Origin: a virus
Reading direction: 5' to 3' (one strand)
DNA: 64,000 nucleotides
Virus record (IMG/VR): IMGVR_UViG_3300032291_002405
Span: 2,282 to 66,281 of that record
In this document: one piece after another, positions 1-16,592 of the stretch
Layout: each line of letters opens with the position of its first letter
Position numbering within the stretch: the first letter of the stretch is position 1
The notes under the pieces: model-generated
What the model was told of the DNA's origin: nothing
The model's database searches: none
What the model saw: the letters and a program-made list of their open reading frames with translations, nothing else
Program-made: the position numbers and the translations under genes

Positions 1-133
1 CCGAGAATAATACCTTACATAACATTTATTGACGATTAAAGATTTTTATGTTGTTTAACAACTGTTGTAAAATCTAAAATGAAAGTTAATAATACTAATC
101 GAATAAACATTACCATACACATATTTATTTCAT

Positions 134-703
134 ATGGAAATATCAAAAGAAAAGGCATTAGATATTCTTGAATTTATAATAGATTCGGGAAAATTTGACT
201 TGTCTGAATTTAAATCGTTAAAAAATAAAAATCATTCTGTATCTGACTTTTCCGATAAGTTTTCAAAATTATTAAAATATATTAATATGGATGATGATAA
301 TTCAGTTGATTTTATTTATCATCTAATCGATTTTAATTTGGAAAATATTGAAAATAATAGTCTGTCGTCTGAAAATATAGTAATACCTGAATTAAAAAGA
401 TTCAAATTAAATTACACAGTTGTTGTGGATAAACAAGAGTCTGAGAATTGGGAAGACAGTAGGGATGGTTATTCGGAAAAATCAATTTATTGGGACTATA
501 TGATGGGTTATTGGCACTTTAATGATGGTGACTATATTGATTCAAGTGTTATTAATTCTGAAGTTTCAGATTATTGGTTTGATTCAATGGTTCCCGAACA
601 AGAACAATCAATTAAAGAACATGTAGAAACCAATCAACAAAAAGTTGAAAAACTTTTAAAGATGAAAAAAATAATTGAAAATAAAATAAAAGAACTATCA
701 TGA
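134..703 (+). CDS. hypothetical phage protein (acidic; possible paralog of 4525..5100)
   Basis: 189-aa ORF; TATTTAT at 122-128 just upstream. Confidence 0.7.
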   Translation: MEISKEKALDILEFIIDSGKFDLSEFKSLKNKNHSVSDFSDKFSKLLKYINMDDDNSVDFIYHLIDFNLENIENNSLSSENIVIPELKRFKLNYTVVVDKQESENWEDSRDGYSEKSIYWDYMMGYWHFNDGDYIDSSVINSEVSDYWFDSMVPEQEQSIKEHVETNQQKVEKLLKMKKIIENKIKELS

Positions 704-1332
704 ATTTAAAAAGGATAATACACGAATCATTGTTAAATGAACAAAACAAATCTTTAGTGTTAACCGAAGATGTTGATGTATCTGAAAATTTACAATACCA
801 TATTCAAGAAAATTTATCGTTAACTGAAAATGTATTTAGAGTTTATTCTAAAAAATATTTTGAATTAATTAATGAAGTTCGTCAATTACATTCTGATGGT
901 AAGATTAAATTAAATGAAGATGACTCTGAAATAATCTTAACCGATATTGGTGAATCTGTTATTTTAGAAGATGGTACCGAAGTGTATTTAGATGCACCTT
1001 TTATCGAAGAAGTTGTAACTGATGATGATATTCAAAATTTAACGGAGGCATTACATAGAGGTAAAAAAGTTAATCTTAATAAACCATTTAGAACCCCTGG
1101 CGGTCCAAAGAAGTTTGCGGTATATGTTAAAACACCGAAAGGAACTGTTAAGAAAGTAACATTTGGTTATCCCGGATTAAGAGTTAAAAATTCAAATAAA
1201 AAAGCCGCAAAATCATTCAGAGCCCGTCACAAATGTGACCAAAAGAAAGACAGAACAAAAGCCGGCTACTGGGCGTGTTCAATAGGTAGATACGCCAAAC
1301 AATTAGGTTTAAAATCATCAGCTTCTTGGTAA
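700..1332 (+). CDS. conserved large-phage protein with RTPGGPKKFAVYV...FRARHKC...AGYWAC domain
   Basis: Basic C-terminal domain recognisable from large phages; N-terminus MNLKRIIHESLLNEQ. Confidence 0.7.
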   Translation: MNLKRIIHESLLNEQNKSLVLTEDVDVSENLQYHIQENLSLTENVFRVYSKKYFELINEVRQLHSDGKIKLNEDDSEIILTDIGESVILEDGTEVYLDAPFIEEVVTDDDIQNLTEALHRGKKVNLNKPFRTPGGPKKFAVYVKTPKGTVKKVTFGYPGLRVKNSNKKAAKSFRARHKCDQKKDRTKAGYWACSIGRYAKQLGLKSSASW

Positions 1333-1394
1333 TTTTAACATTATGATAATATTGGTTTAACACATTCCATTAATTAATTTTCTATTTATAATCA

Positions 1395-2102
1395 ATGGAA
1401 ATGAAAGACCTAATAACAATTGTGATTCCATGTAAAAATGAATCTCACAACATAAGTAATTTATTGTCAAATATTAATTCACAATATTATATTAAAGATG
1501 TAAACATATATGTTGCCGATTCAAGTGATGATGTCTCAACAAATTTACACATTTTATCACAAACAGATAAAGAAACAAAAATACATATAATTGAAGGTGG
1601 GTTACCTTCTACTGCTCGTCACAATGGAGCTCTTTTATGTAAAACACCTTATATACTTTTCTTAGATTCTGACATGGTTATCGAATCGCCAGTATTTATA
1701 TCAAATATTTTAAATGAAATTATTAAACGACAGGGTTCTCTACTTACTTGTAAAGTACGAACAACCGATACGTCTTATGACAAACTTTATAAGATGTTTG
1801 ATTTAATTCAAAAACTACATAAAATCACAGGACCATTTGCCTTAGGTGGTATTATGTTGTTCGAAACTAAAACCTATTTTGAACTTGGTGGTTTTAATCC
1901 TGAAGATGTTATTGCCGAAGACTATAATCTAAGTAGAAAAGTACCATCAGACAAATTCATATTATCAAATAAAATTATTAAAACATCACCAAGAAGGTTT
2001 AACAACAAGGGTGTTTATTATATGGTAAAACTAATGGTTAAAACATTTATCAACAGAAATAATAAAAATTTTTATAAAAAATCACATTCATATTGGTCAT
2101 GA
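1395..2102 (+). CDS. glycosyltransferase family 2
   Basis: ITIVIPCKNE, ARHNGA, LFLDSD (DxD), GGF..D..AED, TSPRRF motifs. Confidence 0.9.
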   Translation: MEMKDLITIVIPCKNESHNISNLLSNINSQYYIKDVNIYVADSSDDVSTNLHILSQTDKETKIHIIEGGLPSTARHNGALLCKTPYILFLDSDMVIESPVFISNILNEIIKRQGSLLTCKVRTTDTSYDKLYKMFDLIQKLHKITGPFALGGIMLFETKTYFELGGFNPEDVIAEDYNLSRKVPSDKFILSNKIIKTSPRRFNNKGVYYMVKLMVKTFINRNNKNFYKKSHSYWS

Positions 2103-2815
2103 AATACAGAACAGTAATAATGTCTGACTTACACTTAGGTTCAAAATCTTGTAGAGCTGACGATATTTTAAAATTTTTAAACAAGTTGGAATGTAAAACA
2201 CTAATACTAAATGGTGACATAATCGATGGATGGGCATTAAAAAGAGGTTCCAAATGGATTGACAAACATACCAAAGTAGTTCGTAAACTACTAAAAATGG
2301 CCGAAAAAGGAACTCAAATTATATGGATTCGAGGTAATCATGATGATTTTTTAGATGAACATTTAGGAACAATTATCGGTAATATTAGTATAACTGATGA
2401 ATTAATATATCAAGGTCTTAATCAAAAATCATATTACATTGTCCACGGTGATAAGTTAGATGTTTTTTCATCAAAATTTAAGCTTATCGCCAAAATCGGG
2501 TCAATCGGATATGATTTAGCATTATGGTTAAACCGGTGGTATAACAAATATCGAGAGTGGAGAAATTTACCTTACTATTCAATTTCTAAAAAAATTAAAG
2601 ATAGTGTTAAATCTGCAGTATCCTTTGTTGCTGACTTTGAAAATAATGCAATCAAATTATCCAAATCAAAAAAATGTGATTTCATTATTTGTGGTCACAT
2701 ACACAAGCCAACAATAATAAATGGTTATATGAATTCAGGTGATTGGTGTGAAAATTCAAGTGCGTTGGTTGAAAATGATAAAGGTGTATGGACTATTGTC
2801 TATTGTAATGTATAA
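2093..2815 (+). CDS. calcineurin-like metallophosphoesterase (LpxH-like family)
   Basis: SDLHLG, GDIIDGW, GNHDD, HGD, CGHIH, NSGDW motifs. Confidence 0.9.
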   Translation: MVMKYRTVIMSDLHLGSKSCRADDILKFLNKLECKTLILNGDIIDGWALKRGSKWIDKHTKVVRKLLKMAEKGTQIIWIRGNHDDFLDEHLGTIIGNISITDELIYQGLNQKSYYIVHGDKLDVFSSKFKLIAKIGSIGYDLALWLNRWYNKYREWRNLPYYSISKKIKDSVKSAVSFVADFENNAIKLSKSKKCDFIICGHIHKPTIINGYMNSGDWCENSSALVENDKGVWTIVYCNV

Positions 2816-2823
2816 TTATATAT

Positions 2824-3093
2824 ATGAACAAACCATTTGAACAAGAAATATTTGACAATTACTACATTCGAGTTTTTTCCAAAGACGTTGAAGTTGATGA
2901 ATTAAAATGGCATTCAGACAATGAAAACCGTAAAGTGACTATTTTGGAAGGTGATGGATGGGAATTTCAAATTGATGATGAACTACCAATTAACTTAAAG
3001 TCAGGTGATGTTATCAGAATACCAAAAGGTATTCATCACAGAATAAAAAGAGGTGTTACCGATTTAAAAATTAAAATTGAGTTTTATGACTAA
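2824..3093 (+). CDS. cupin-domain protein
   Basis: KWHSD...ILEG...GDVIRIPKGIHHRI cupin motifs. Confidence 0.8.
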   Translation: MNKPFEQEIFDNYYIRVFSKDVEVDELKWHSDNENRKVTILEGDGWEFQIDDELPINLKSGDVIRIPKGIHHRIKRGVTDLKIKIEFYD

Positions 3094-3709
3094 TAAGTTA
3101 AACTCAAACATCCCCCACTTTAAAGCTAAAATTAAAAAATCATTCTTTACAAAAGATGATGAGCATTCTGACGAATACTACGATGTAATTTGTTTCGGTA
3201 TTCAATCGTTATCAGGTAAAATATTAACATTTCATGTTATGACAGATACAGGTATGATGAGAAGTCGTGTTCCCATATCTGAGATATACACTAAAGAATG
3301 TGAAACAGATATTCCATTTCATTACAAACAATTATGGGATTGTTTTTCGGACAATGTGTCAATTATTAAATACGATTTTTTAGAATACCATAGAGCCCAA
3401 ATACTTTTACGTGATGGGTCCAAGGTTTGGGGTGAATACATGTTTACAGTTGACTGGTTTAATAACCCATATAGTGATGAACCGACAGATTATAAATGTG
3501 GTCATGTCTTTTCATCTGACGATGGTTATTTGTTGTGCATGCCAAACAATAGAATATTTTGGAAAGATTCAAATTGGGTGACCAAAAAATTACCAATAGA
3601 CTTAAAACAATTTAAAGTCGATACTAATTTACCGTCTGTTGAAAACGTTTCGGATAGGTGGGTCAGCGAAGACACGGATAGTTTCTATTACGATATTACT
3701 GAAGAGTAA
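3086..3709 (+). CDS. conserved hypothetical phage protein
   Basis: QLWDCFS, YMFTVDW, PNNRIFW motifs; ATG at 3086 is the likely start. Confidence 0.7.
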   Translation: MTNKLNSNIPHFKAKIKKSFFTKDDEHSDEYYDVICFGIQSLSGKILTFHVMTDTGMMRSRVPISEIYTKECETDIPFHYKQLWDCFSDNVSIIKYDFLEYHRAQILLRDGSKVWGEYMFTVDWFNNPYSDEPTDYKCGHVFSSDDGYLLCMPNNRIFWKDSNWVTKKLPIDLKQFKVDTNLPSVENVSDRWVSEDTDSFYYDITEE

Positions 3710-3710
3710 T

Positions 3711-4100
3711 TTATTTATCAATTTCTTCGATAAATAAATATGGAAATTCTTCTTTAACTTCATGTAACGGTAATTGAATTGTTTTTTCATACAATGATAA
3801 ACTATCAGTTAAATACTTAAAAAAGGAAAAAGTTTGAGAATTTTTCACGGTTTTTGCAAACGTTGCTAAGGTATCGTTATCTTTTTTTTGAATATTAATA
3901 TTCGTTATTATTTCAGCCTTATCCCAAACTAAAAATATGTCATATCCAAAAACAGTTCCAATGTAATTCAACTTATTAGTTTGTTTAACTTCACAACAAT
4001 CATGGAAAATTATTGTATCGTCACCGTGTTGTCGGGTCACGGTTATGAAATAAAATTCTTTTATAAAATCCAAACAAATTTCAGTTTCGGTCATAATCAA
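3711..4100 (-). CDS. hypothetical protein
   Basis: 129-aa ORF filling the gap. Confidence 0.6.
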   Translation of the reverse strand: MIMTETEICLDFIKEFYFITVTRQHGDDTIIFHDCCEVKQTNKLNYIGTVFGYDIFLVWDKAEIITNINIQKKDNDTLATFAKTVKNSQTFSFFKYLTDSLSLYEKTIQLPLHEVKEEFPYLFIEEIDK

Positions 4101-4109
4101 AATATATTA

Positions 4110-4138
4110 AAAAAGGGTGAATTTCTCCACCCTTTTTG
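4110..4138 (-). terminator. intrinsic terminator (probably bidirectional)
   Basis: aaaaagggtg-aatttctc-caccctttt hairpin flanked by A/T tracts. Confidence 0.75.
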
Positions 4139-4198
4139 GGGTTGAACCGGTTAGGGTTTCAACGTTCCACCACTTATTTTTAAGATAAAATAAGAAAC

Positions 4199-4474
4199 TT
4201 AATGAGGTATGGTATTAACAATTTCAATCAAATGTTCTTTATCTACCCATTCAATAACATCACCATTTGCCGAAGGAATAACTTTCTTAGTTACAAAATT
4301 ATTATTCTTATCAAAAACTGATATTTGGAATGTCGTTTCAAAATCACCACATAAACCTTGATGTCCACCTGTAATCGATACAGTGTACAATCCAAGTTTC
4401 AATAAAGTTTGTTTACCACCCAAGGGAGATTGAGTAATAGCATTATTGATTATGTCTTCAAAAGTTATTTCCAT
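4199..4474 (-). CDS. hypothetical protein
   Basis: 91-aa ORF. Confidence 0.65.
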   Translation of the reverse strand: MEITFEDIINNAITQSPLGGKQTLLKLGLYTVSITGGHQGLCGDFETTFQISVFDKNNNFVTKKVIPSANGDVIEWVDKEHLIEIVNTIPH

Positions 4475-4524
4475 TATACTGAATTATACTATATTTTTTT
4501 TACAAAGTAAAATATTTATCAATA

Positions 4525-5100
4525 ATGAATCAACAAAGAAAAATTAAAAAAAATCTGTCATTATATAGACTAATTGAAAATGAAGAATCGTCGGTTCCAA
4601 ACACATTAACAGATAAGGAAGTCTTTATTGTTACTTACCTTTTGGAAGATGTTGATAGAAGTGTTCTTTATTCCGCAGAACGTTATTGGGACGAATTGAA
4701 GCCCTATGACATGAAAAAAATTATTGATACTATTTTTACACCAATATTACCATACGTTAATAAAAAAAATTTAAAAGGTGATTTGAGATTATATCAATAT
4801 ATTTTTTGTGCTTTGGAAAATGATACTTCAGTAACTACTGATACACCAATACGAAGAATGAAAAACTATAACTATAAAATATGGGAAATTAGAAGACAAA
4901 TAGAATATGTTGATTGGAGAACCGAAATACCTGGTTTTAGCCTTGATGAAGTTAGGAATAAGTCGGAGTTAATTCAGGAATCATTATGGGACTGGAACCC
5001 TGAAAGTAACGATTCTGATTATGGTGATAGTGAGTTTTTAGGTCTTGAAGATGAAGAAATTAGGGATTCGATATATGAAAAATTTTTAGTTATTGACTAA
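4525..5100 (+). CDS. hypothetical phage protein
   Basis: 191-aa ORF; TATTTAT at 4513-4519. Confidence 0.7.
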   Translation: MNQQRKIKKNLSLYRLIENEESSVPNTLTDKEVFIVTYLLEDVDRSVLYSAERYWDELKPYDMKKIIDTIFTPILPYVNKKNLKGDLRLYQYIFCALENDTSVTTDTPIRRMKNYNYKIWEIRRQIEYVDWRTEIPGFSLDEVRNKSELIQESLWDWNPESNDSDYGDSEFLGLEDEEIRDSIYEKFLVID

Positions 5101-5355
5101 CATTTCAGTTTTTGTCATCGCATATTCAGCTAATGTCATCCCGTTTATTTTAGATACAATTACACTTTCAACCAATACTGAATAAGGAATATGTATGAAC
5201 ATTTCCTGAGCATCATATGTTGTCAAATCAGTTTTTAATGCAAGTGCTCCTTGAACCATCTTACAAAAGATTCTGAATTGCGTTTGGTCATTAAAAGATG
5301 GTATTGTCAATTCACCGAACTTTGGGTGGTAGAAACTTAATTGATACTTATTCAT
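5086..5355 (-). CDS. hypothetical protein
   Basis: Likely start MNKYQL at 5355, directly after TTGTTT-N17-TATATTTG. Confidence 0.7.
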   Translation of the reverse strand: MNKYQLSFYHPKFGELTIPSFNDQTQFRIFCKMVQGALALKTDLTTYDAQEMFIHIPYSVLVESVIVSKINGMTLAEYAMTKTEMLVNN

Positions 5356-5389
5356 ACCACAAATATAAAATAAAAACTTTATAAAAACA

Positions 5390-5420
5390 AAAAACCCCAA
5401 GATTTTTTTTTCTTGAGGTT
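5390..5420 (-). terminator. intrinsic terminator closing the large ncRNA transcript
   Basis: Minus strand AACCTCAAGA-A-rich loop-TCTTGGGGTT followed by a T-rich tract. Confidence 0.7.
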
Positions 5421-5459
5421 CAGATTGAAGGTCACTACCCTTCTTGACTTTTGGCTGAA

Positions 5460-6300
5460 ACGCTGAGACTATACGTTTTATTGACCTGTCTTTTGTAGAG
5501 ATTATACCCGACTAAGGTTTCCTCTCGTGTCCACAAATGTTGCCATCTGTATCAAGTCATCACCGATTGTTTACGTCAATCACTCGTTTCGGTTAACCCT
5601 ACTCAACTATTACTTATCTCTATGGAATCTTGCGGACTCCCTAAACCCGTGCCCAGGTACTAGGACTTTCTTAGTCAAAACTGAAGGACTTGGGGTCCTG
5701 TCAATTTCCTCGTTAGCTTTGGCTCAAGGAATTAGGTGACTTTCAGTTTAACCGCTCAGAGACTTATCCTTTTATTAGTTTCTTTTCTTCAACGTAAGAA
5801 TCCAACATTGTGAGTCTATGAAGGTTGAGCTCTGAGGTGGCTAGCTTCTCTTTTGAAGAAGGAAATACCACTCAACCTTCTGTAATCCGCCAAGACTACG
5901 ATTTATCTTGATATCGTTGAGTCGCCTCTTGGATACCTATGATAAACTGGTACCTAGCCCTACATCAGATTGGCGTCTGAGTCGAACCATCACCTTTACC
6001 TATTCCTATTGGTGTCTCCACCTCAATCCTGATACTCACGTAATCAGGATGGATACCCCCTCTCAGCTGTTGCCCATGAGGATTTACCCGTAGGTAATTT
6101 GTTTAGTTGTGAGCCACTTTCGTGACACCGAAGTATTCGGTCGTTGAAACCTTTTCTCCTTATAGTCCCGTTACCGGGGTTATCTTAATCGACGCTAAAC
6201 CGCCGAATTATGTCTGTTATCAACTGATTGTAATAAGTGGAGGGGTCCATTTATTTCCCATCAGTTGGACATACCAATAATTAAAAGAACGTTTTTCAAA
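5460..6300 (-). ncRNA. large structured ncRNA, GOLLD-like
   Basis: ~0.85 kb GC-richer island with no credible ORF; many hairpins (e.g. GAAGGTTGAG...CTCAACCTTC, ATCCTGAT...ATCAGGAT); own promoter and terminator; 3' end AAAACGTATAGTCTCAGC resembles the GOLLD 3' terminus as I recall it. Confidence 0.65.
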
Positions 6301-6353
6301 AGAAGGAAACCACGATTTTACGACAACGTCAACCTTTCTCCTGAATTGTTTTA

Positions 6354-6384
6354 CAAAGTTAAGTAAGTTATTTGATTTTGTCAA
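6354..6384 (-). promoter_or_regulatory. host-type promoter TTGACA-N17-TAACTTTG driving the ncRNA
   Basis: Perfect -35 hexamer, 17-nt spacer, Bacteroidetes-type TAnnTTTG element; a TATTTAT motif also lies at ~6427-6437. Confidence 0.7.
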
Positions 6385-6463
6385 GTACTTTCTAAAACTT
6401 TTTTTTAATAAATCTTTGTGATTGTGATAAATAAATACAACTATTTTTTAAAAAAGTCAAACA

Positions 6464-6850
6464 TTATAATAAAATTTCTAAAACTTTTTTTAAATCTTTA
6501 GATATTTCAGGTAAATCGGTTAACTTAAAATACTGACATTCTGTATGCTCATTTCCATCTTTGGCGTTTTTCAAGTCAGGATATATTTCACTATCACTCT
6601 TTAATTGATATAAATGAACCTTACCACTTACCCCATATATAATGGAAATAAATGATAAATCATTTGTTGTGATTTTAATATCTGTTTCTTCAAAAAATTC
6701 TCTAACCGCAGCGTCAATTGGTTCTTCACCGTTCTCAATTTTACCCGAAGGAAATGACCACATATTAGGTAATACCCTTCTGTCGGGTGCTCGTTTACAA
6801 AGTAAACATTTATTATTTGATTTAACAATTACACCTGAATATTCTTTCAT
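6464..6850 (-). CDS. NUDIX hydrolase
   Basis: GKIENGEEPIDAAVREFFEETDI Nudix box. Confidence 0.92.
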   Translation of the reverse strand: MKEYSGVIVKSNNKCLLCKRAPDRRVLPNMWSFPSGKIENGEEPIDAAVREFFEETDIKITTNDLSFISIIYGVSGKVHLYQLKSDSEIYPDLKNAKDGNEHTECQYFKLTDLPEISKDLKKVLEILL

Positions 6851-6876
6851 ATAATATAATATATTTATTTAAGTAT

Positions 6877-7230
6877 ATGAAAGTTATTATAAATGACAAT
6901 GTTTTCAAGGTTAAAGTTTGTATGACCCCTGAAACTATTTCAAAAGGCATGATGGGCCAAAAATTTAACAATGATTTTAATGGTATGTTATTTATGATGC
7001 CAAATGATGGTTATCAATCTTTTTGGATGAAAAACTGTTTAATACCGTTAGACATTATTTTCATTGACTCAGATAAAAAAATAACGTCGATTCAAAAGAA
7101 TTGTGAACCGTGTAAAAAAATTGAATGTCCAACTTATGAAGGTACTGGTCAATATGTTTTGGAACTAGAAGGTGGAACTTGTGATATTTGTGAAATAGAG
7201 CCAGGTCAAAAAATTAAAATTACCCTTTGA
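6877..7230 (+). CDS. DUF192 family protein
   Basis: GMLF...FWMKNCLIPLDIIFI...YVLEL signature. Confidence 0.9.
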   Translation: MKVIINDNVFKVKVCMTPETISKGMMGQKFNNDFNGMLFMMPNDGYQSFWMKNCLIPLDIIFIDSDKKITSIQKNCEPCKKIECPTYEGTGQYVLELEGGTCDICEIEPGQKIKITL

Positions 7231-8617
7231 TTTCTTTTTTCAACTCATCAACAATTTTACTTTGAATGTTCTTAGTTAGTTTTACATAAGGTGTTTCATC
7301 ACCATCATCTCTTCGGTATCCACCACCTGATGGTTTTCTTTTAGCTCTACCGTAGTAATTTAATCCTGAAATATTAGTTATACATTTATGACCCCCCGAA
7401 TTTGCCTTAACAATATTCCATAAAGGTAACCCAAAGTTATCTAATATTTGTAATTCATTTTCACTTAAATTATTGTATGGTGTATCTAAAATATCTTTTA
7501 ATTTTTCCCATCCTTCCATATTTTCTAATTTAGAATAAACTTCAGGATAAAATGCTTCCAAATCAGTAGATGTGAACCCAACTGAATCATCAATAGTTGA
7601 TGTTTCACTTACCCATTTTAAAGTTGTTATTGGTATAATTTTTTCTTCAAACCAACCACGGGCAGTTTCAAGTAATTTATCGGCAATACTACCCAAATTT
7701 ACACCGGGTAATGGCCTATCTTTTTTATATGGATTACAAGATGCTTGTACTAACCCCATTGGCCACGCAATAACCAAAAAATTAGCATCAGGATAAATTT
7801 CAAATGGTGTATATCTATCATATGAACCCGGTTTGAACATACTACCTCCCCCATATTGAATAATAATCCCATCTTCATATTTTATATTAGGGCTTTTTCT
7901 TTGTGATTCAATATACTCTTCTTGATTTTTTGTCATTTGTTCAGGAGTTGCGAATCCTGATTTCTTGGCATATGTCTTAATATTATTTAGAATACTTAAC
8001 AAAGATGGTTCTGAGTTCATCACCAAATATTCTAAAAATCCTGGTTTGTTTTTATAAGCTAGTAATAATTTATTAGCGACTAATCCCATGGCCATTTTAT
8101 TTTTAGAAAGACCTGCCTCTTTATCCATTCTAAATAGATAATTCATCACGTCTTTTGGTGTTAAACCTTTTTCCTTGTATTTTGCAGCATCGACAGTTGA
8201 AATAATATCGATGTCCGTATTTGTGAATATTTCTCTTGGTGAAACTATTTGTGATATCGTTTTAACATTTGATGGAGACTCCGCAAATGATGTTGATGAT
8301 GTGTCACTAGCACCAACTTGTTTGTCGTGATGGTCTGTGTGGATTTTAAACATTGGCTTTCCATGTGCAAAATCTACAAGAACTGGCATAACATCACCTT
8401 CCGCATCCATCTTTTTAATTGCGAATTCTCTATCACCATATTGAATGACTTCAGTGTCCACAACTTGTATTCCATTACGTTCCAAATACTTTTTCATGGC
8501 CAAAGCGGTTGTAACACCATCCAAATCTTGGTGGAAATAAATTTTTGCTTTAGGATATCTTTTAGTTAGTTCCTTGATATCCCTAATACCCGATTCTCTA
8601 ATTATTGTTTTACCCAT
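7220..8617 (-). CDS. DHH-family phosphoesterase-like protein
   Basis: FHQDLDG, VLVDF, TDHHD and C-terminal SGGH motifs. Confidence 0.75.
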   Translation of the reverse strand: MGKTIIRESGIRDIKELTKRYPKAKIYFHQDLDGVTTALAMKKYLERNGIQVVDTEVIQYGDREFAIKKMDAEGDVMPVLVDFAHGKPMFKIHTDHHDKQVGASDTSSTSFAESPSNVKTISQIVSPREIFTNTDIDIISTVDAAKYKEKGLTPKDVMNYLFRMDKEAGLSKNKMAMGLVANKLLLAYKNKPGFLEYLVMNSEPSLLSILNNIKTYAKKSGFATPEQMTKNQEEYIESQRKSPNIKYEDGIIIQYGGGSMFKPGSYDRYTPFEIYPDANFLVIAWPMGLVQASCNPYKKDRPLPGVNLGSIADKLLETARGWFEEKIIPITTLKWVSETSTIDDSVGFTSTDLEAFYPEVYSKLENMEGWEKLKDILDTPYNNLSENELQILDNFGLPLWNIVKANSGGHKCITNISGLNYYGRAKRKPSGGGYRRDDGDETPYVKLTKNIQSKIVDELKKEIKG

Positions 8618-9396
8618 TAGTCGTCAAATCCAAAAAAATCTGATATTCCCATAACTATTTTATCCATGATGTCACCATGTTCTTTTTGGCAAATTTTCAA
8701 AGTTGCTTTGTCTTTTGTCGGCATTTTACTACTCGTATCATACCCCCACACACCGTCTTGTTCTACACCAATACTACCCTGATATGTATATATAGCTTGA
8801 GCTGTTTTTGAATTTGGATATCTTCCGATGCTACCATCAACAACTAAAGATTTACCTGAATCATCTTTAATACCTTTTTTATTTAAAAAACATTGTATAG
8901 CTTTTTTGGCGTTCATTTCTTCGGCCTGTTCTTTTAATATATTTCTTTCTTTGATAACTTTTTTAACAATTCTGTGTAAATCAGATTCGGTTAATTTTAT
9001 AACTTTTTTCTTTTTCATTTTATTTTCCTTTAACGTTAATAAATATTTTACTTTATTAAAAACTGCCATCATTTCATCACGGATGTTTAACAAATCAGTA
9101 TCTTTAACATCGTCAAGAATATCATCAAATGATATCAAATAATCGACAACACCTGTCGCCCACTCATTAATATCAACATCTTCATAATCAAACATTTCTA
9201 ATTTTTGATTTTTAGTTGATGGTCTTCCATATTTACCCATTGTAACTTCAACAAAATCATCAATCAAATCTTCTAAATCATCGAACGCATCTCCTAATGC
9301 CTCATGTTGAGCCAATGATTTAGTTTGCCAATGAAAATATTTTACTTGATTAAATAGTTCTTGTAATCCAGCGACTACTTCTGATACATTATTCAT
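8617..9396 (-). CDS. ferritin/Dps-like (DUF5856-type) domain fused to a peptidoglycan-binding domain
   Basis: N-terminal FHWQT..HEAL..LEDLIDDFVE; C-terminal AIQCFLN..VDGSIG..TAQAIYTYQ..DGVWG. Confidence 0.7.
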   Translation of the reverse strand: MNNVSEVVAGLQELFNQVKYFHWQTKSLAQHEALGDAFDDLEDLIDDFVEVTMGKYGRPSTKNQKLEMFDYEDVDINEWATGVVDYLISFDDILDDVKDTDLLNIRDEMMAVFNKVKYLLTLKENKMKKKKVIKLTESDLHRIVKKVIKERNILKEQAEEMNAKKAIQCFLNKKGIKDDSGKSLVVDGSIGRYPNSKTAQAIYTYQGSIGVEQDGVWGYDTSSKMPTKDKATLKICQKEHGDIMDKIVMGISDFFGFDD

Positions 9397-9428
9397 AATG
9401 ATAAATATGAGTAAGGCATAAAAAAAGG

Positions 9429-10313
9429 TTAGAATTTTCTAACCTCTTTTAATTCAAGTTCTATTTGTGATAATTTTGCCCGATAATTGGATATTCGTTG
9501 ATTTGCTGTATTAGTATAGTCTTCACTTAATTCAATACCAATCCATTTCCGACCTAAAAATTCTGCCGAAAGTGCCGTGGTCCCCGAACCCATGAATGGG
9601 TCCATTACGATATCTTCTTTGAATGATAATATTTTAATCGCCTTGGTTGGTATATCCATTGAAAATGTCGCCTTGGTTAATGGTCTTGAATCATTTAGAT
9701 ACTTCCACTGACCAAATACCAACTCCATAAATTCTTTCTTGTCATTATCATCATAAATCGTTTTATTTCTAAAAAATGCAGGATTATCCTTATCCGCAAC
9801 TTGACCCGATTCACCAACCCATTGAGGTGTACCTTTATTTATTTTTTTTGGTTGTTCTTTATAAGCAATTAAAATACACTCTTTCGGATTATAAATATAA
9901 GGTTGACTAGGACTCATCCAACTTCCCCACGCAGTTGTTTTACTCCTATGCGGACTATCTTCTTCAAGGTCAACAATCCCAAACCATTTATAACCAATTT
10001 TTTTCATAATGTTCCATATTTCTGAAACAATAAAAACTCTACCACCTCTATCTTTAAGATTAATTTCATATGGAATATTAAGTGCAATTCTACCATCAGA
10101 TTTCAGAACTCTAAAAGCAGATGTAAGCCATTCTTCACTGAATTTTAAATATTCATCAATATACATTTCATCATCATGTACGTCATATTTAATACCTACA
10201 CCGTAAGGACAACTGGTTACAATTAAATCAATACATCTTTCTTCCATCTCATTCATTACCGTCCGGCAATCACCATTAATTATTGTATTTGTAATACTCT
10301 CTAAATTTCTCAT
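9429..10313 (-). CDS. DNA methyltransferase, N4/N6 beta class
   Basis: IINGDC, TSCPY (SPPY variant), DPFMGSGTT, GIELS. Confidence 0.92.
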   Translation of the reverse strand: MRNLESITNTIINGDCRTVMNEMEERCIDLIVTSCPYGVGIKYDVHDDEMYIDEYLKFSEEWLTSAFRVLKSDGRIALNIPYEINLKDRGGRVFIVSEIWNIMKKIGYKWFGIVDLEEDSPHRSKTTAWGSWMSPSQPYIYNPKECILIAYKEQPKKINKGTPQWVGESGQVADKDNPAFFRNKTIYDDNDKKEFMELVFGQWKYLNDSRPLTKATFSMDIPTKAIKILSFKEDIVMDPFMGSGTTALSAEFLGRKWIGIELSEDYTNTANQRISNYRAKLSQIELELKEVRKF

Positions 10314-11076
10314 ATTTTTCTTTTTTTCTTTCTAAATAAATTGTTGCGTTTTTATAAATGTAATTATAAAATTTGAGATTTCCTAATTTATCTTGTATAT
10401 GTAGTGAAATATTAGAATAACACTTAATATCAATATCATTTTCTTTTAATATTTCAATTATTTGGTTTCTAAATTTTTCCGAAACACATAGTAAAGAAGT
10501 ATGAGGTCTCAATGTTTTTAAATCGAATGAAAAACATCCATCACCATCAAAAAATCCTCTAATGAAATGATTCATATATTCTTTATCAATATTAGGAAAT
10601 TCTATTGTAAATGTTTTCCTTGAGTGTATACCTTGTTGTTTGATTGAATTGACCAAACTATTAGAATATATGGCCAAATAACACATATGGGATTCTGAAA
10701 ACCCTGATTTATACTTAACTTTATTAAAAGATTCCTTGATTTTATGATTAGAACCTATAGAATTTCTGAATTTTTTCAAATGTTCTATGTCTTTTATTGA
10801 TAGTTTCATTTCTAATGAATTACCACTCTTTCTTTCTCTTATATAACCATCGGCATATAAAAATCCAAGCCAATAAGAACTTTCTTGATTATCAATTATG
10901 TTAAAATAATTATTGTTTACAACGTGTCTTCTATTTGTTAAATTAAATCCATTTGATTTAAGAACCCGTATAATGGGTGTTATTGACACATTAAAATATT
11001 TCGCAACTTTATGAATACTTTTCAATTCATTATATTGACTTATAACATCACACTCATTTAATAATAACTTCCCCAT
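10276..11076 (-). CDS. LAGLIDADG homing endonuclease (two motifs, N-terminal HTH)
   Basis: YWLGFLYADG and FIRGFFDGDG; TATTTAT at 11081-11087. Confidence 0.92.
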   Translation of the reverse strand: MGKLLLNECDVISQYNELKSIHKVAKYFNVSITPIIRVLKSNGFNLTNRRHVVNNNYFNIIDNQESSYWLGFLYADGYIRERKSGNSLEMKLSIKDIEHLKKFRNSIGSNHKIKESFNKVKYKSGFSESHMCYLAIYSNSLVNSIKQQGIHSRKTFTIEFPNIDKEYMNHFIRGFFDGDGCFSFDLKTLRPHTSLLCVSEKFRNQIIEILKENDIDIKCYSNISLHIQDKLGNLKFYNYIYKNATIYLERKKEKYEKFREYYKYNN

Positions 11077-11157
11077 ACTAATAAATATTGTTTAAATTGT
11101 GTATGTTGAGTTATTTTTCATGTTTCTACCATATTTTACTTTTCTTTTAGTTTTTCA

Positions 11158-11646
11158 TTAAAAATCAGGATTTGTGATTCGTAAATCATAGTCAGTAAAT
11201 TCCGCAAAGTCTAATTCATCAGCATTGATTCTTCTATCCATATTGTCACCCGGCATATTCCTAATTGATAATCTTTCTTTTCTTGTGTCTTTATCAATAT
11301 CGACATAAATAATAAAAGAATTTTTCCTATCTTCAGATTTAATTCGTGAAACGCCCGAAGGTGTCATTACAAATAAATCATCGGTATGAAATTGACTAAC
11401 AGATGTACCATAAACCCAACCATTAAACATAACATGTTCATAGAAAAAACCAGAATTAATTAGATTTTCCGCATCATCATTAGTGATAAAGTTATAATCT
11501 TTACCATTAATTTCCCCATCTCTTGGAGGTCTCGTCGTATATGTCACAGCATATTTGAACCCACGTGATTCAAATATCTTCCTCAGGTGGTCTTTACCTG
11601 ACGCCGCTTTCCCAACAATTATTGTTCGTTTATGATTTGACTTCAT
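11158..11646 (-). CDS. gmk: guanylate kinase-like
   Basis: GKAASGKD P-loop, TTRPPRDGEINGKDYNF, YGT. Confidence 0.88.
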   Translation of the reverse strand: MKSNHKRTIIVGKAASGKDHLRKIFESRGFKYAVTYTTRPPRDGEINGKDYNFITNDDAENLINSGFFYEHVMFNGWVYGTSVSQFHTDDLFVMTPSGVSRIKSEDRKNSFIIYVDIDKDTRKERLSIRNMPGDNMDRRINADELDFAEFTDYDLRITNPDF

Positions 11647-11650
11647 ATTT

Positions 11651-11851
11651 TTATTGATTTTTAATTACATAATAATCTTTACCGATTTGTCGGTTATACT
11701 CAATAACAATTCCATTTTTTTCCATATCTTTTAATAGATATTTCGCATCTTCAGGTGTTATTTTTAGTAAGTGTGAAACAAAATTAATATGTAATGGATT
11801 TTTTAATTGAACCATTAACTTTTTTTCCTGACTAGGTGTTAATGTAACCAT
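11651..11851 (-). CDS. small winged-helix-like hypothetical protein
   Basis: 66-aa ORF in the operon. Confidence 0.6.
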   Translation of the reverse strand: MVTLTPSQEKKLMVQLKNPLHINFVSHLLKITPEDAKYLLKDMEKNGIVIEYNRQIGKDYYVIKNQ

Positions 11852-12003
11852 TACTTTTTTACAGGTTTAATTCTTGAATCTTTTTTCCATAATTCTTTGG
11901 GTACATATTCCCAACCTAAAAAAGATTGTCTAATTAGTTTATCAGCTTCTTTATCTTGCATTCTTTTAATCTCACCTGTTTTACTATTTTTTAATGTTTT
12001 CAT
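11851..12003 (-). CDS. small hypothetical protein (50 aa; absent from the ORF track)
   Basis: Translated by hand: MKTLKNSKTGEIKRMQDKEAD...GWEYVPKELWKK...; stop overlaps the next start. Confidence 0.7.
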   Translation of the reverse strand: MKTLKNSKTGEIKRMQDKEADKLIRQSFLGWEYVPKELWKKDSRIKPVKK

Positions 12004-12021
12004 ATTATTAATTTTAATTTT

Positions 12022-12831
12022 TTATTTTTCATATGATGAAAATCGATTTACCGCAATATCAAAATCATCCTTTTCTTTCTCAATACCTAAAAATTTTCTA
12101 CCACTTTTTAAACAAGCAACACCAGTTGTTCCTGAACCCATTGTATTGTCTAACACAACATCGCCAATATCGGTATAGGTTTTAATCAACCATTCTAACA
12201 TGTCTATTGATTTTTCAGTCCTATGTAACGCTTTACTTGGGTGCGTTTTTTGAAACGATATAATACTTTTAGGGTACTTTTGGGTCGACCCGGCTCTGTT
12301 GTCGTCAGTTATTTGAAATTCACCGTAATTCTGATTCTTAGGTTTTTTATTTTTAAATGACTTTCCCTTGGAATGTAATGGTTTTCCTTCAGTGTATTGT
12401 GGATTATATTTCGGTAATTTCTTATAAAAAACCGCAATGTTTTCATGTACTCTTAATGGCATTCTATTCGCATTTAAAAACCCTGAAATTAATTGTTTGT
12501 CCCAAACTAAATCATATCTAAATATCTTTCTGTTGGAATTCACTAAGTCAATAAAAAATAAGCCCTGACCGAATAAAACTATCGCACCATTATCTTTAAT
12601 AACCCTTTCATATTCTTTCCAAAGTTTGTCAAATGGTAATGTAATATCTTTATCGTTTTGAGTTATTCCATATGGTAAGTCGCAACAAATCATATCAATA
12701 CTTTTATCAGGAATATGTGGGAATACATCAAAACAATCCGCCCAAAATAATGTACTATTTTCTACTTTGTGAATATGATTCGTAGAATTTAAATTCTCAG
12801 TCCATTCGAAATTGGTATTTTCTATTTTCAT
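12022..12831 (-). CDS. DNA methyltransferase, N4/N6 beta class
   Basis: CDLPYG, HRTEK, LDNTMGSGTTG; likely start MKIEN at 12831. Confidence 0.92.
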   Translation of the reverse strand: MKIENTNFEWTENLNSTNHIHKVENSTLFWADCFDVFPHIPDKSIDMICCDLPYGITQNDKDITLPFDKLWKEYERVIKDNGAIVLFGQGLFFIDLVNSNRKIFRYDLVWDKQLISGFLNANRMPLRVHENIAVFYKKLPKYNPQYTEGKPLHSKGKSFKNKKPKNQNYGEFQITDDNRAGSTQKYPKSIISFQKTHPSKALHRTEKSIDMLEWLIKTYTDIGDVVLDNTMGSGTTGVACLKSGRKFLGIEKEKDDFDIAVNRFSSYEK

Positions 12832-12841
12832 GTCATGAATT

Positions 12842-13042
12842 TTAAACATTTTTTGAATCTTTATCAATGTTCTTTTCCAACAATTTTATAATATCTTCCT
12901 TGTCGTAACCTTTTTTAAAATTATGAATAAAATTCCTTGACCATTTATCTTCGATTATTAGAACGTCAGCACTGAATAATTTTGAAACATCTTGACTTTG
13001 AATTATTGTCTGTTTATTGATGTATCTCTTATTAAACCCCAT
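12842..13042 (-). CDS. hypothetical protein
   Basis: MGFNKRYI 66-aa ORF. Confidence 0.65.
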   Translation of the reverse strand: MGFNKRYINKQTIIQSQDVSKLFSADVLIIEDKWSRNFIHNFKKGYDKEDIIKLLEKNIDKDSKNV

Positions 13043-13647
13043 TATTTCAAGTAACTTAAGACTTTATCTTTAATTCCTGATTGCTTAATCCCTTCTAAGG
13101 GATATTGAGTCCAAACAAAATTACTTAAACCCCAATCACTCTTTTTTGAACCGAAAAAAGAGTGGTATTCCAAACCCATATTTAAATCATCAATAGCAAC
13201 CCATTGTGTTACCGAAGGATTATCTCTTAACCAACGTGTAATCTCAAAATATCGTTCTTGTTCTCTACTTACATTTCTATACCAATTAAAATTATCGTGA
13301 TTAGGTAAAAATCCTTCTTCCAACCACTTTGTGTAATGAAACTCTTCGGTTACTCCGTATGGTTTTTTAATTATACCTTGTGATAGGTAATATTCACCAA
13401 GCTCTTCAATATTTGCATATAATCTCCAATCGGAACTAACAACAATTTCCGCATCTGTTTCTTCTAAGATTTCATTCAATATTTTAATCGCCTTTTTGTC
13501 AAAATTATCAAATCTATATTCCACAGGCATTTCAGAAACTGTCGTTGACAATTTATTATGTTCCCATTTTTTTTGTTTCTTAAGTCGAGAACCCCAATTA
13601 TTTGATAGACATATCACACCATCATTATCAAGAAAAATAACTTTCAT
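13042..13647 (-). CDS. HAD-superfamily protein (Swiss Army Knife RNA-repair-like HAD)
   Basis: VIFLDNDGV, IVVSSDWR, WVAIDD. Confidence 0.85.
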   Translation of the reverse strand: MKVIFLDNDGVICLSNNWGSRLKKQKKWEHNKLSTTVSEMPVEYRFDNFDKKAIKILNEILEETDAEIVVSSDWRLYANIEELGEYYLSQGIIKKPYGVTEEFHYTKWLEEGFLPNHDNFNWYRNVSREQERYFEITRWLRDNPSVTQWVAIDDLNMGLEYHSFFGSKKSDWGLSNFVWTQYPLEGIKQSGIKDKVLSYLK

Positions 13648-13665
13648 TTTACAAAAATACGAAAA

Positions 13666-13788
13666 TTATTTTTTATCTTCAAGTATCATTTTCCAATAAA
13701 GTTTTCGTAGTTTCTCACCAAGTTCATAATTATTATGTGTGTTTTCAACTAATTTTTTAATTTCTTCTACAATTTTTTGGTTATTCAT
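13666..13788 (-). CDS. small hypothetical protein (40 aa; absent from the ORF track)
   Basis: Translated by hand: MNNQKIVEEIKKLVENTHNNYELGEKLRKLYWKMILEDKK. Confidence 0.6.
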   Translation of the reverse strand: MNNQKIVEEIKKLVENTHNNYELGEKLRKLYWKMILEDKK

Positions 13789-14509
13789 ATATTGTATTTT
13801 GTTTTAATGTTTGTTGTACAAATGAATTTATTTTTCTTTTAACAATTGGTAATATCGTTTCTTCCAAAGGAATAAAATCACTAATACTATTTTTAACTTT
13901 TAAAACAAAAATTGGGTGATTAGGTTTTTTCTTCTCATATGGGTCATTAGATATTAGCTCAGGAATATTAATAGAATCTTTAGTTATTTTAATTTTCTTC
14001 AGTACCAATTTTTTTTCTTTTCTATTTCTTTTGAATTTTTTTAGTTCATATCGATATAAATAATTTTGATTATTATAATCAAAAAATACAAACCCTCTAC
14101 CTCTTTTCAGCTCATCCTCATTTTCAAGTAGTGCCAACCATAAAGATTCATAAATCGCAGACCATATCGATTTGGCAATTAAAAAATAGTCTCTAAATTT
14201 TTCTTCACCGTACTTTGCAATTCTCTTATATTCAGTATAATCTTGTGGTAACATTTCTGGTATGTCAAAATATTCCAAATCTGAAATTAAAACTTCATCG
14301 TCAATATCTTCTAAATCGTATTTTAGTTTAATATATTTGTCTTTTGAAGAAAGTGTTGAAAAACTTGCATAGTTTATCGAAATGTCTCTAAAGTGTGGGT
14401 ATAACTTGAATTTGTCTAAATCTTCTGCCGCCCTTTTAAAATATGCCAACATTTTATACTCATGGTATTCAAAATCCATAGGCTCATCAACCATCCAATC
14501 TGTTCTCAT
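13781..14509 (-). CDS. hypothetical protein
   Basis: 242 aa, DW...DFEYHEYKMLAY N-terminus. Confidence 0.7.
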   Translation of the reverse strand: MRTDWMVDEPMDFEYHEYKMLAYFKRAAEDLDKFKLYPHFRDISINYASFSTLSSKDKYIKLKYDLEDIDDEVLISDLEYFDIPEMLPQDYTEYKRIAKYGEEKFRDYFLIAKSIWSAIYESLWLALLENEDELKRGRGFVFFDYNNQNYLYRYELKKFKRNRKEKKLVLKKIKITKDSINIPELISNDPYEKKKPNHPIFVLKVKNSISDFIPLEETILPIVKRKINSFVQQTLKQNTIYE

Positions 14510-14545
14510 ACCATCAATATAAACATTTATTACACAACATAAATG

Positions 14546-16348: not shown

Positions 16349-16443
16349 TATTTTTATATTTTAATTATAAATATTCAACACATAACAATATAAAAATTAT
16401 ATTGAATATTTATAATATATAAACCATTTAATTATTTTAAATT

Positions 16444-16575
16444 ATGAGCGGATGCGGATGTAAAGGTACAAAACCAACACAACCAACACAACCAACAACA
16501 CAAACAACAAACGAAGCGGTTTCAAAGGCGGTGAAAAAAACCGTTGAGAAGTATTATCAGAATGTTAAAAAATAA
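16444..16575 (+). CDS. small GCGCK-motif protein (43 aa; absent from the ORF track)
   Basis: MSGCGCKGTKPTQPTQPTT...; TATTTAT at 16407-16413; terminator downstream. Confidence 0.75.
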   Translation: MSGCGCKGTKPTQPTQPTTQTTNEAVSKAVKKTVEKYYQNVKK

Positions 16576-16592
16576 AACTTTGTTGGTGGTAT

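Follow-up and report, generated by a model that had tools for sequence, protein, structure and literature searches.

A probable stand-alone gene for a GOLLD-family RNA in a large aquatic phage

With a probability of about 0.85, the minus-strand segment 5386-6348 of the window (the whole 64-kb stretch of DNA that was analysed) encodes a ~960-nt non-coding RNA of the GOLLD family as an independent gene in a large, ~300-kb aquatic phage. The original prediction offered two options, membership in the GOLLD family and a giant RNA of a new kind. In an Rfam covariance model search, the GOLLD model RF02032 matches 5880-5460 (minus strand) with 306.2 bits and an E-value of 1e-86. The alignment spans model positions 1-416 of 416 and is not cut off, and the score is about twice the gathering cut-off of 150 bits; of the two options, the first is correct. 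Besides GOLLD, the search of 5000-7000 at E <= 1 returned three matches only, all at chance level (E 0.5-0.9) and far under their cut-offs. The RNA is of an already described kind, and this copy brings no new one.

The predicted full transcript (5386-6348, minus strand) is ~963 nt long and contains 41.8% GC. We infer both of its ends: the promoter geometry gives the start (to within a few nucleotides), and the U-tract of the terminator gives the end. The 963 nt from start to terminator agree with the giant size of the family, many members of which exceed 800 nt. The RNA consists of a conserved 3' domain and a less conserved, structured 5' domain (6348-5881). Carriage by a phage is indicated by the virus record that holds the window (22% completeness), by PHROG matches among flanking and distant genes, and by relatives of 81-83% identity in records of 294,914 bases (98% complete) and 232,874 bases. 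As originally noted, the region is richer in GC than its flanks (0.42-0.45 across 5400-6300 vs 0.26-0.33).

Domain structure and long-range pairings

The Rfam-modelled 3' domain (5460-5880, minus strand) contains a variable, A-rich linker of ~55 nt at 5818-5764, located from the Rfam alignment and from columns 581-636 of our alignment A3. It is a low-confidence, poorly conserved stretch of the Rfam alignment and contains no tRNA. The linker is enclosed by a covarying 7-bp helix, CUCAGAG (5836-5830) with CUCUGAG (5761-5755), which pairs throughout in 17/17 distinct sequences, with compensatory changes at 4 pairs. One strand of this helix comes from the bulge in the first hairpin of the 3' domain, the other from beyond the linker, and the linker is thereby closed into a loop. 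We infer that linker and closing helix are the published J13/15 and its enclosing helix. A pseudoknot of 6 bp, GUCACC (5740-5735) with GGUGAU (5564-5559), lies within the same domain and is 100% paired, 4 pairs being compensatory.

Two hairpin loops of the 3' domain can be compared with published contact sites. At the position of cGCAA in the model, the loop reads GGGCAC, and its GC (5652-5651) is invariant in 18/18 aligned sequences. Judged by its sequence, this loop is the putative L21a equivalent, with a self-complementary GC, and a candidate for a symmetric chain-to-chain kissing contact. A hairpin is also present at the place of P21b. The loop equivalent to L21b is a GNRA-type CGCAA and not an obvious palindrome, so that one or more of the published contacts may be different in this RNA. 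The L20-J13/15 contact described in the literature was also looked for; none of the 3'-domain loops is consistently complementary to the linker (mean longest run ~4). Either this contact is different here or the helix mapping is off.

The 5' domain, for which there is no Rfam model, begins with a hairpin at 6295-6345 (minus strand), found by folding and in the alignments, whose 5' arm is AGGAGAAAGGTT (6342-6331). Its length varies; relatives have a short or a long hairpin of different sequence at this place. A second, long hairpin is predicted by folding at 6211-6283, around a conserved ACCCC stretch. It is specific to the window, all other rows of alignments A1, A2 and A3 being gapped at these positions, and one RNA-library contig (X5) joins 6210 to 6284, omitting the 73 nt. 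The conserved core follows at 5882-6205, where RNAalifold and pair counting define 17 helices, some with GNRA-type loops.

In total, 80 pairs are predicted in the 5' domain, with compensatory changes at 40 according to RNAalifold and at 41, both sides changed, by counting; the aligned relatives all come from a single lineage of phages that share their gene order, and the counts for this reason contain inherited changes. The fraction of paired cells is 97.8%, compared with 84.6% in shuffled alignments (0/500 as high as observed) and with 31-47% after sliding of the pairing partners. The 5' domain is a conserved, heavily base-paired RNA common to a subfamily of phage contigs.

The original prediction also pointed out a repeated motif, AGGAGAAA(A)GGTT. 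Both copies are present, at 6342-6331 and at 6160-6148, where the sequence AGGAGAAAAGGTT forms the 5' arms of two core helices. A functional repeat finds no support: the copies serve as 5' arms in different helices, the first of them in the variable hairpin. Relatives G005 and G004 lack this first copy, and with it the repetition of the purine-rich motif.

Covariation extends to pairings that connect distant parts of the RNA. Within the first ~17 nt of the linker, two segments pair with loops of the 5' domain. The first, ACUCAC (5815-5810), at the linker start, is complementary to the loop GUGAGU (6039-6034). A column test gives 5 aligned pairs, 100% paired and 3 of them compensatory; sequence by sequence, 6-10 bp form, as in GUGGAA/UUCCAC and UUUUGUAGAG/UUCUACAAAG. 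The second, UGUUGG (5807-5802), pairs with the loop UCAACG (6147-6142). The linker aligns poorly, and this pairing was judged per sequence rather than by columns. It co-varies, with CAAC/GUUG in the group of the window and UAGC/GCUA or UAGUA/UGCUA in others. Finally, two hairpin loops of the 5' domain form a kissing pairing of 4 pairs, CGCC (5975-5972) with GGCG (5891-5888), which is 100% paired, with 3 pairs compensatory.

Taken together, the four long-range helices tested by columns comprise 22 pairs with 100% of cells paired, 14 of them compensatory, vs 34-46% paired when slid; their shuffle statistics are flattered, because a scan over every pair of columns had served to select these helices. 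The five covarying pairings provide testable contacts for the question of what keeps the linker and both domains together. Compensatory changes, proposed at the outset as a check, are thus found both in the 5' domain and in the long-range pairings.

Assembly and possible function

GOLLD is among the few natural RNAs known to self-build a closed cage. Cage assembly has been described for two members, closed at nanomolar concentration, in the available excerpts of two papers (PMC12286853, PMC12990946). By analogy, the window RNA would probably fold into a 5' "cap" and a 3' "ring" and self-assemble into a closed dihedral cage, with its short, tRNA-free linker pointing inward. This reading is transferred from two solved GOLLDs, a 12-mer and a 14-mer, with inter-subunit contacts compared by description.

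The GOLLD could instead act as a monomer or small oligomer on ribosomes or on a host factor, as a decoy or sponge, with the closed cage not being the cellular form. The cage has been observed in vitro only, and ribosomes bind GOLLD in pull-downs according to excerpts of one study (PMC12286853). From sequence alone, the loop-linker and loop-loop pairings described above fit formation within a chain as well as between chains. We consider this alternative unlikely, given that two different GOLLDs assemble closed at nanomolar concentration in the excerpts cited above and that the self-complementary GC of the L21a equivalent, invariant in 18/18 sequences, is hard to explain by a single chain.

What a cage assembled from the window RNA would do is a more tentative matter than its assembly. 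It is at best a doubtful proposal that the cage would hold or shield a macromolecule, from host or phage, that is connected with translation in the lytic phase. The comparative set argues that tRNA cargo, attached to or beside GOLLD, is unnecessary for its function: 22/29 subfamily loci have no tRNA, and 7/29 have a single tRNA-Met, located just upstream of the GOLLD promoter. More speculatively still, the GOLLD of this lineage might have split from tRNA arrays into a NUDIX cassette with a strong host-type promoter, and two covarying kissing contacts might tether the inward linker start to the 5' cap. If these contacts form between chains, the geometry or subunit number of the cage may differ. 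The RNA could then have a job independent of a covalently attached tRNA, possibly the capture of a factor of host translation or defence, while the NUDIX protein would act on the 5' end of the RNA or on host RNA caps. The lineage provides a clean comparative set, a single group of phages with GOLLD in a conserved gene order and with conserved promoter and terminator.

Transcription unit and gene neighborhood

The promoter upstream of the GOLLD gene, as originally predicted, consists of TTGACA (6384-6379, minus strand), a 17-nt spacer and TAACTTTG (6361-6354). It fits two patterns, the sigma-70-type TTGACA-N17-TAnnnT and TTG-N20-TAnnTTTG. TTGAC and TAnnnT are aligned in 19/19 relatives of one alignment at a spacing of N16/17, and the TAnnTTTG form is found in 15 of these 19 as well as in the window. 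In the window, TTG-N20-TAnnTTTG is found 8 times where 2.9 are expected (0/100 shuffles reach 8). The element TAACTTTG alone is not enriched (6 in the window vs 5.3 expected), and promoter-like sites within 4800-7200 are at chance level (13 vs 9.3 +/- 2.9 in shuffles). What is significant for the RNA gene is the Rfam match, the covariation, and the fact that all relatives conserve promoter and terminator. Read against what we take to be the Bacteroidota promoter consensus, the pattern is a hint as to which group the hosts of the "lake-derived" GOLLDs belong to. Host RNA polymerase with its primary sigma factor would quite likely transcribe the gene from this conserved promoter, so that no phage factor would be needed.

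Downstream, an intrinsic terminator with an 11-pair stem (5421-5392, minus strand) and a U-run extends to 5386. A GC-rich stem followed by a U-run closes 18/18 aligned sequences at this place, with differing stem sequences. Between the terminator and the end of the Rfam model, folding predicts an extra small hairpin at 5427-5443; in relatives G005, G004 and G002 the aligned place is also occupied by a hairpin, with another sequence. The positions of promoter and terminator match in all 17 aligned relatives.

The original prediction spoke of several promoters and of expression both early and late. The TATTTAT motif that it listed is present upstream, near 6436-6426, as part of a TTGACT-N17-TATTTA arrangement at about 6459-6431; nearby, 21 nt are directly repeated (6389-6409 and 6475-6495, 95% identical). 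Neither the TATTTAT stretch nor the repeat is conserved in G005, G004 and G002, and a second promoter is for this reason not claimed. With the proximal promoter as the only conserved one, expression at two stages finds no support, and one promoter with one terminator is what stands.

Contigs from four metatranscriptome libraries of 3 studies fall on 5461-6363, some of them ~98-99% identical to the window. Record 25 of library X7 covers 5499-5964 with 468 nt and 5 other letters, and record 17 of X5 has 397 nt with 6 other letters. Such contigs are no proof of transcription and cannot show the strand, start or end of a transcript, and an RNA library may contain DNA. Within 3500-8500, contig cover is essentially confined to ~5340-6500; the uncovered flanks carry no evidential weight, and the flanking protein genes of relatives would also fall below the 85% likeness limit of the comparison. 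The habitat labels are freshwater for X17 and aquatic for X18. Runs with only a third of the words are labeled freshwater, lake water, aquatic or marine, and were not counted as habitat evidence.

The GOLLD gene lies in a gene order conserved in the subfamily: 465-aa protein, DUF192, NUDIX, GOLLD and 89-aa ORF. The NUDIX hydrolase gene directly upstream (6464-6850, minus strand; Pfam PF00293, E 1.4e-16) has a tblastn match beside GOLLD in 26/34 subfamily loci. The 89-aa ORF directly downstream (5086-5355, minus strand) is found in 16/34 and matches no PHROG or Pfam family. Both neighbors are outside the RNA, on the same strand and a short distance from it, with the NUDIX stop at 6464 and the ATG of the 89-aa ORF at 5355. 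This conserved adjacency could mean that the structured region is not independent and serves as the 3' UTR of the NUDIX mRNA or as a regulatory 5' leader of the 89-aa ORF. One low-depth RNA-library contig that extends beyond 6363, into the promoter region of a relative, would fit such a transcript. Several observations make it very improbable. A promoter between NUDIX and GOLLD and a terminator behind GOLLD are conserved across relatives, a tRNA-Met stands between NUDIX and the GOLLD promoter in 7/29 loci, and the 89-aa ORF has a promoter-like motif of its own, TTG-N20-TATATTTG, 4 nt upstream of its ATG. In addition, G002 keeps GOLLD with no NUDIX match in ~1 kb upstream of it.

That the region codes for one or more small proteins can be practically dismissed, as the seven ORFs of 27-70 aa that overlap it (the longest inside 5390-6440 has 70 aa) and two AGGAG-like strings are set against 0/7 ORFs remaining open and in frame across relatives, nearly all of which interrupt the aligned place of each ORF by stops or by length changes that break the frame, and against helix substitutions that are compensatory. 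The view of a ~1 kb stretch with no credible ORF is thereby upheld.

The absence of a tRNA in or beside the RNA, noted originally, extends to the whole 64-kb window (ARAGORN). In relatives G005, G004 and G001, tRNA islands sit 60-68 kb from GOLLD, which accounts for a window free of tRNAs; G002 has 3 weak tRNA matches ~50 kb away. The available excerpts of the GOLLD papers place the family "often" near tRNA arrays (PMC12286853, PMC12990946), and the lack of such proximity does not, because of this wording, bar membership.

Searches with the RNA (blastn) and with positions 1-20000 of the window (megablast) gave no match among 50,697 phage records; the phage is without a close named relative in this set. 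A scan of ~600 billion bases for a 20-base motif of the 5' domain gave no sign of the subfamily in species genomes. In bacterial genomes the motif occurs at one locus (L116), in a metagenome-assembled contig. This locus was rejected as a GOLLD, neither the subfamily profile nor Rfam detecting one there; with 20 fixed bases over ~600 billion bases, a few chance matches are expected, and L116 thus gives no host clue. Among the literature matches listed, no paper combines GOLLD with jumbo, huge or mega phages, and none of the titles or abstracts on GOLLD concerns jumbo phages.

Relation to known GOLLD and ROOL RNAs

A new giant RNA, or a ROOL, OLE or group I/II intron RNA merely resembling GOLLD, is practically refuted: the 5' half has no Rfam match and a covariance model of its core finds 26/100 loci, all of this subfamily, and 0/7 other GOLLD loci even with filters off, yet the 3' domain matches GOLLD at full length and twice the gathering score, the ROOL, OLE and group I/II intron models suggested for comparison have no match at E <= 1 in 5000-7000, and a variable 5' domain is a stated GOLLD trait in the excerpts available (PMC12286853, PMC12990946).

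Among GOLLDs, the closest described likeness is the env-38 RNA, which according to excerpts of its report has 833 nt, lies downstream of a Met-tRNA and was solved as a 14-mer cage (PMC12286853). Features in common are the 3' domain matched at full length, a 5' domain of ~400-460 nt, a variable internal linker and phage origin. Four distinct relatives of the window's subfamily measure 817 nt by the boundaries drawn here and lie just downstream of a tRNA-Met. Compared by description (length and tRNA-Met), env-38 may belong to the same 5'-domain subfamily. The window RNA differs in being longer (~963 nt), owing to its large first hairpin and the window-specific 73-nt hairpin, and in having no tRNA within 64 kb.

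GOLLD RNAs are also contained in tRNA arrays, as described for Mycobacterium (PMC12990946, in excerpt). In our set, seven loci of this other kind, from other phage contigs, share the 3' domain and score 180-241 bits on RF02032. Six of the seven have tRNAs, five of these with six or more, and in L038 a tRNA lies inside the GOLLD match. No relationship is detectable between their 5' domains and that of the window, in whose lineage the tRNA islands are distant.

The Streptococcus agalactiae GOLLD is described, in excerpts of the same review, as a 700-nt RNA of a bacterial chromosome that forms a 12-mer and is without several helices, including P21b; in its 5' cap domain, loop L10 of one chain contacts loop L12' of another (PMC12990946). 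The pairing of 5975-5972 with 5891-5888 in the window resembles this contact, the match of helix numbers being a guess. The window RNA is longer, has a hairpin at the place of P21b and is phage-borne. ROOL, another large phage-borne RNA, also forms cages as far as the excerpts go (PMC12286853), whereas its sequence and fold are unrelated to those of the window RNA, in keeping with the Rfam result above.

A GOLLD RNA gene with two structured domains

The window contains a GOLLD RNA gene of a single phage lineage, with two structured domains, a short tRNA-free linker, and its own promoter and terminator. GOLLD (RF02032) is the sole Rfam match in the whole window at curated thresholds. The match lies on the minus strand at 5880-5460; its score is 306.2 bits (E 1e-86), with a gathering cut-off of 150. 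It spans model positions 1-416 of 416, the Rfam model covering only the 3′ domain. In a permissive Rfam scan of 5000-7000 (E ≤ 1), no ROOL, OLE or group I/II introns were detected, and the only hits besides GOLLD were three at chance level. The original prediction had noted a stretch without a credible ORF and richer in GC than its flanks. This observation is confirmed, with a GC fraction of 0.42-0.45 compared to 0.26-0.33 on both sides and no ORF longer than 70 aa, and its interpretation as a GOLLD family member is supported by the full-length match. Seven window ORFs (27-70 aa) overlap the RNA; at the aligned place, nearly all relatives carry stops or frame-breaking length changes. Judged from the sequence, the region is not coding.

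A pattern derived from conserved 3′-domain positions retrieved 109 stretches from a viral contig collection. Using nhmmer with the window RNA, we found a match along both halves in 29 of the 109 loci, and a profile built from these recovers the same 29 as well as 22 more that match within the 3′ domain only. The 5′ domain was aligned between the window and 17 relatives (16 distinct sequences, leaving out exact duplicates and end-cut copies). The structure predicted by RNAalifold has 17 helices with 80 pairs, of which 40 show compensatory changes. The predicted partners pair in 97.8% of cells, compared to 84.6% in column shuffles (0/500 reach the observed value), and sliding them by 1-3 columns lowers the fraction to 31-47%. 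Both-side changes occur in 41 pairs, against 5-12 when slid. Covariation among homologues, a check suggested with the original prediction, is seen in both the RNAalifold fold and the pair counts.

Alignment and fold place the conserved 5′-domain core at 6205-5882 (minus strand). Upstream of it are a variable first hairpin (6345-6295, minus) and a 73-nt hairpin (6283-6211, minus) present only in the window among the aligned sequences; in one contig from an RNA library it is skipped, with 6210 joined directly to 6284. A covariance model made from part of the core matched 26 of 100 searched loci, all of the same subfamily. With filters off, its best score in seven loci of other subfamilies, which Rfam identifies as GOLLD at 180-241 bits, was 9.7 bits (E 0.74).

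The purine-rich motif reported to occur twice is present at both places on the minus strand: copy 1, AGGAGAAAGGUU, in the 5′ arm of the variable first hairpin (6342-6331), and copy 2, AGGAGAAAAGGUU, in the 5′ arms of two conserved-core helices (6160-6148). A functional repeat does not hold up, copy 1 being missing from two related records, G005 and G004. We read the motif as two purine-rich helix arms.

Promoter, terminator and transcript

The promoter pattern on the minus strand consists of TTGACA (6384-6379), a 17-nt spacer and TAACTTTG (6361-6354). The predicted terminator, an 11-pair stem with a U-run, is located at 5421-5392 (minus). Taken without comparison, these elements carry little weight: the AT-rich surroundings contain 13 promoter-like sites, compared to 9.3 ± 2.9 in shuffles, and TAACTTTG is not enriched across the window (6 vs 5.3). 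In every aligned sequence, from close relatives to the wider subfamily, a TTGAC + TAnnnT element occurs at the same position, and a stem of differing sequence with a U-run closes the RNA at the same place. The proposal of an own promoter and terminator is therefore borne out, and we take the transcript to run from about 6348 (± a few nt) to 5386, with predicted ends, a length of ~963 nt and 41.8% GC. Nothing was found in support of separate early and late promoters. An A/T-rich 21-nt direct repeat (6389-6409 and 6475-6495, 95% identical, 86 nt apart) has one copy immediately ahead of the GOLLD -35 box. The second is located within the 3′-terminal part of the NUDIX gene and is followed by a weaker TTGACT-N17-TATTTA. 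The repeat is not kept in the closest relatives.

The GOLLD promoter fits both the classical TTGACA-N17-TAnnnT and TTG-N20-TAnnTTTG, the latter matching what we take to be the Bacteroidota promoter consensus. TAnnTTTG is present in the window and in 15 of 19 relatives of the subfamily alignment, while the other four have TATACT. The full TTG-N20-TAnnTTTG pattern occurs 8 times in the window (2.9 ± 1.6 expected; 0/100 shuffles reach 8). Five ORFs of at least 60 aa have TAnnTTTG 0-7 nt ahead of their ATG (minus strand: 5360-5367, 13652-13659, 23702-23709 and 25028-25035; plus strand: 41720-41727), with TTG 20 nt upstream in four of them. Such spacing is suggestive of mRNAs with very short leaders or none, made from a Bacteroidota-like promoter. 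GOLLD is quite likely transcribed by the main RNA polymerase of the host; that this host belongs to the Bacteroidota has about even odds.

Among the public runs listed, 20 of 21 contain at least part of the stretch, and six of these 20 are RNA libraries. Contigs of four RNA libraries from three studies were compared with 3500-8500 at 85% likeness. Contigs of all four fall on 5461-6363, some of them nearly identical to the window: a 468-nt contig (X7 record 25) has 5 other letters and 2 gaps, and a 397-nt contig (X5 record 17) has 6 other letters. These contigs, which carry neither strand nor ends and may include DNA carry-over, agree with an expressed RNA.

Phage lineage, gene neighbourhood and tRNAs

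The window comprises bases 2282-66281 of a 66,281-base virus record rated 22% complete. GOLLD is found at 81-83% identity in five records, one of 294,914 bases (98% complete) and another of 232,874 bases (78% complete). Given these sizes, the window probably comes from a jumbo phage with a genome of about 300 kb. A blastn comparison with 50,697 named phage records gave no match, and PHROG families match few of the phage's large proteins. Unlike most of these large proteins, a glycosyltransferase (60099-61364, minus) matches phrog_24687 with E 1.5e-157.

The gene order 465-aa protein, DUF192, NUDIX, GOLLD, 89-aa ORF is repeated among subfamily members, at protein identities of 33-62%. Of 34 loci, 26 have a NUDIX hit and 16 a hit to the 89-aa ORF; the loci that lack one are mostly cut at the locus end. 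Within this one phage lineage, GOLLD has thus been passed on at a constant position. Its best conserved neighbour is the 465-aa protein (7220-8617, minus), which has no PHROG or Pfam match and lies always two genes upstream of the RNA, at 56-62% identity in 17 subfamily loci. The NUDIX hydrolase (6464-6850, minus) and DUF192 (6877-7230, plus) form a divergent pair kept beside GOLLD throughout the subfamily. NUDIX enzymes could act on the 5′ ends of RNA, any link to GOLLD being hypothetical. The protein at 8617-9396 (minus) combines a DUF5856 domain (PHROG label: starvation-inducible regulator) with a weak peptidoglycan-binding/endolysin-like C-terminal part.

ARAGORN detected no tRNA across the 64-kb window, in line with the original prediction, which saw none in the RNA or next to it. 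Published excerpts describe GOLLD as "often near tRNA islands", with a linker that sometimes holds a tRNA (PMC12286853, PMC12990946). In the window lineage, GOLLD is mostly not near such islands. G005 and G004 have 29 tRNA matches each, 67-68 kb from GOLLD; in these near-complete records they are concentrated in a 25-kb island (G005 130,615-155,989; G004 67,483-92,857). Of two further related records, G001 has 11 matches at a distance of about 60 kb and G002 has 3 weak ones at about 50 kb. The window's own record has none; with GOLLD and island oriented as in G001, the island would lie beyond this record.

In the subfamily, 22 of 29 loci are without a tRNA. The remaining seven, which comprise 4 distinct sequences, each have one tRNA-Met directly before the GOLLD promoter. 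These seven, L064 (1858-1985), L075, L025, L003, L109, L073 and L076, carry a second promoter-plus-leader copy about 110-830 nt further upstream, so the promoters of tRNA-Met and GOLLD seem duplicated. Other GOLLD subfamilies have tRNAs in 6 of 7 loci, six or more in five of them, and in one case a tRNA inside the GOLLD match. In this locus (L038; GOLLD 6954-7394, 226 bits) the tRNA at 7252-7324 is presumably located in the linker. In L026, L056, L021, L072 and L074, GOLLD is embedded in dense tRNA arrays. The window lineage speaks against a need for a tRNA covalently linked to GOLLD or lying next to it.

Long-range pairings and comparison with solved GOLLDs

Every pair of columns in the full-length alignment was scanned for stacked complementarity that covaries and lies outside the nested fold. 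Four long-range helices were found, with 22 pairs, 100% of cells paired and 14 compensatory pairs; pairing drops to 34-46% when slid, and the shuffle figures are flattered because the helices were chosen by the scan. On the minus strand, CUCAGAG (5836-5830) with CUCUGAG (5761-5755) turns the variable linker into a closed loop, and GUCACC (5740-5735) with GGUGAU (5564-5559) forms a pseudoknot inside the 3′ domain. CGCC (5975-5972) with GGCG (5891-5888) links two 5′-domain hairpin loops, and GUGAGU (6039-6034) with ACUCAC (5815-5810) links a 5′-domain loop to the linker start. A per-sequence search confirms the last pairing, with 6-10 bp in relatives, and adds a fifth, UCAACG (6147-6142) with UGUUGG (5807-5802), also on the minus strand, which is replaced by UAGC/GCUA or UAGUA/UGCUA in other members. 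The five predicted contacts may be intramolecular or may connect separate chains. Both kinds occur in solved GOLLDs, including a loop-loop contact between 5′ domains, according to excerpts of the review PMC12990946; the correspondence of their helix numbers to the window RNA is uncertain.

The RNA is another GOLLD of an already known type, from a poorly known jumbo-phage lineage. By analogy, its copies would assemble into a closed cage, in which the 5′ domains would form caps and the 3′ domains rings, with the linker pointing inward. This layout is seen in the 14-mer and 12-mer structures as excerpted (PMC12286853, PMC12990946). The L21a-equivalent loop of the window RNA contains an invariant self-complementary GC (5652-5651), which fits one chain-to-chain contact described in these excerpts. 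The L21b-equivalent loop is CGCAA and may differ from the GOLLDs described there. The excerpted account of env-38, the GOLLD solved as a 14-mer, gives 833 nt and a position downstream of a Met-tRNA (PMC12286853); our tRNA-Met relatives share this setting and measure 817 nt by our own boundaries. Based on the shared setting and similar length, env-38 may belong to the window's GOLLD subfamily.
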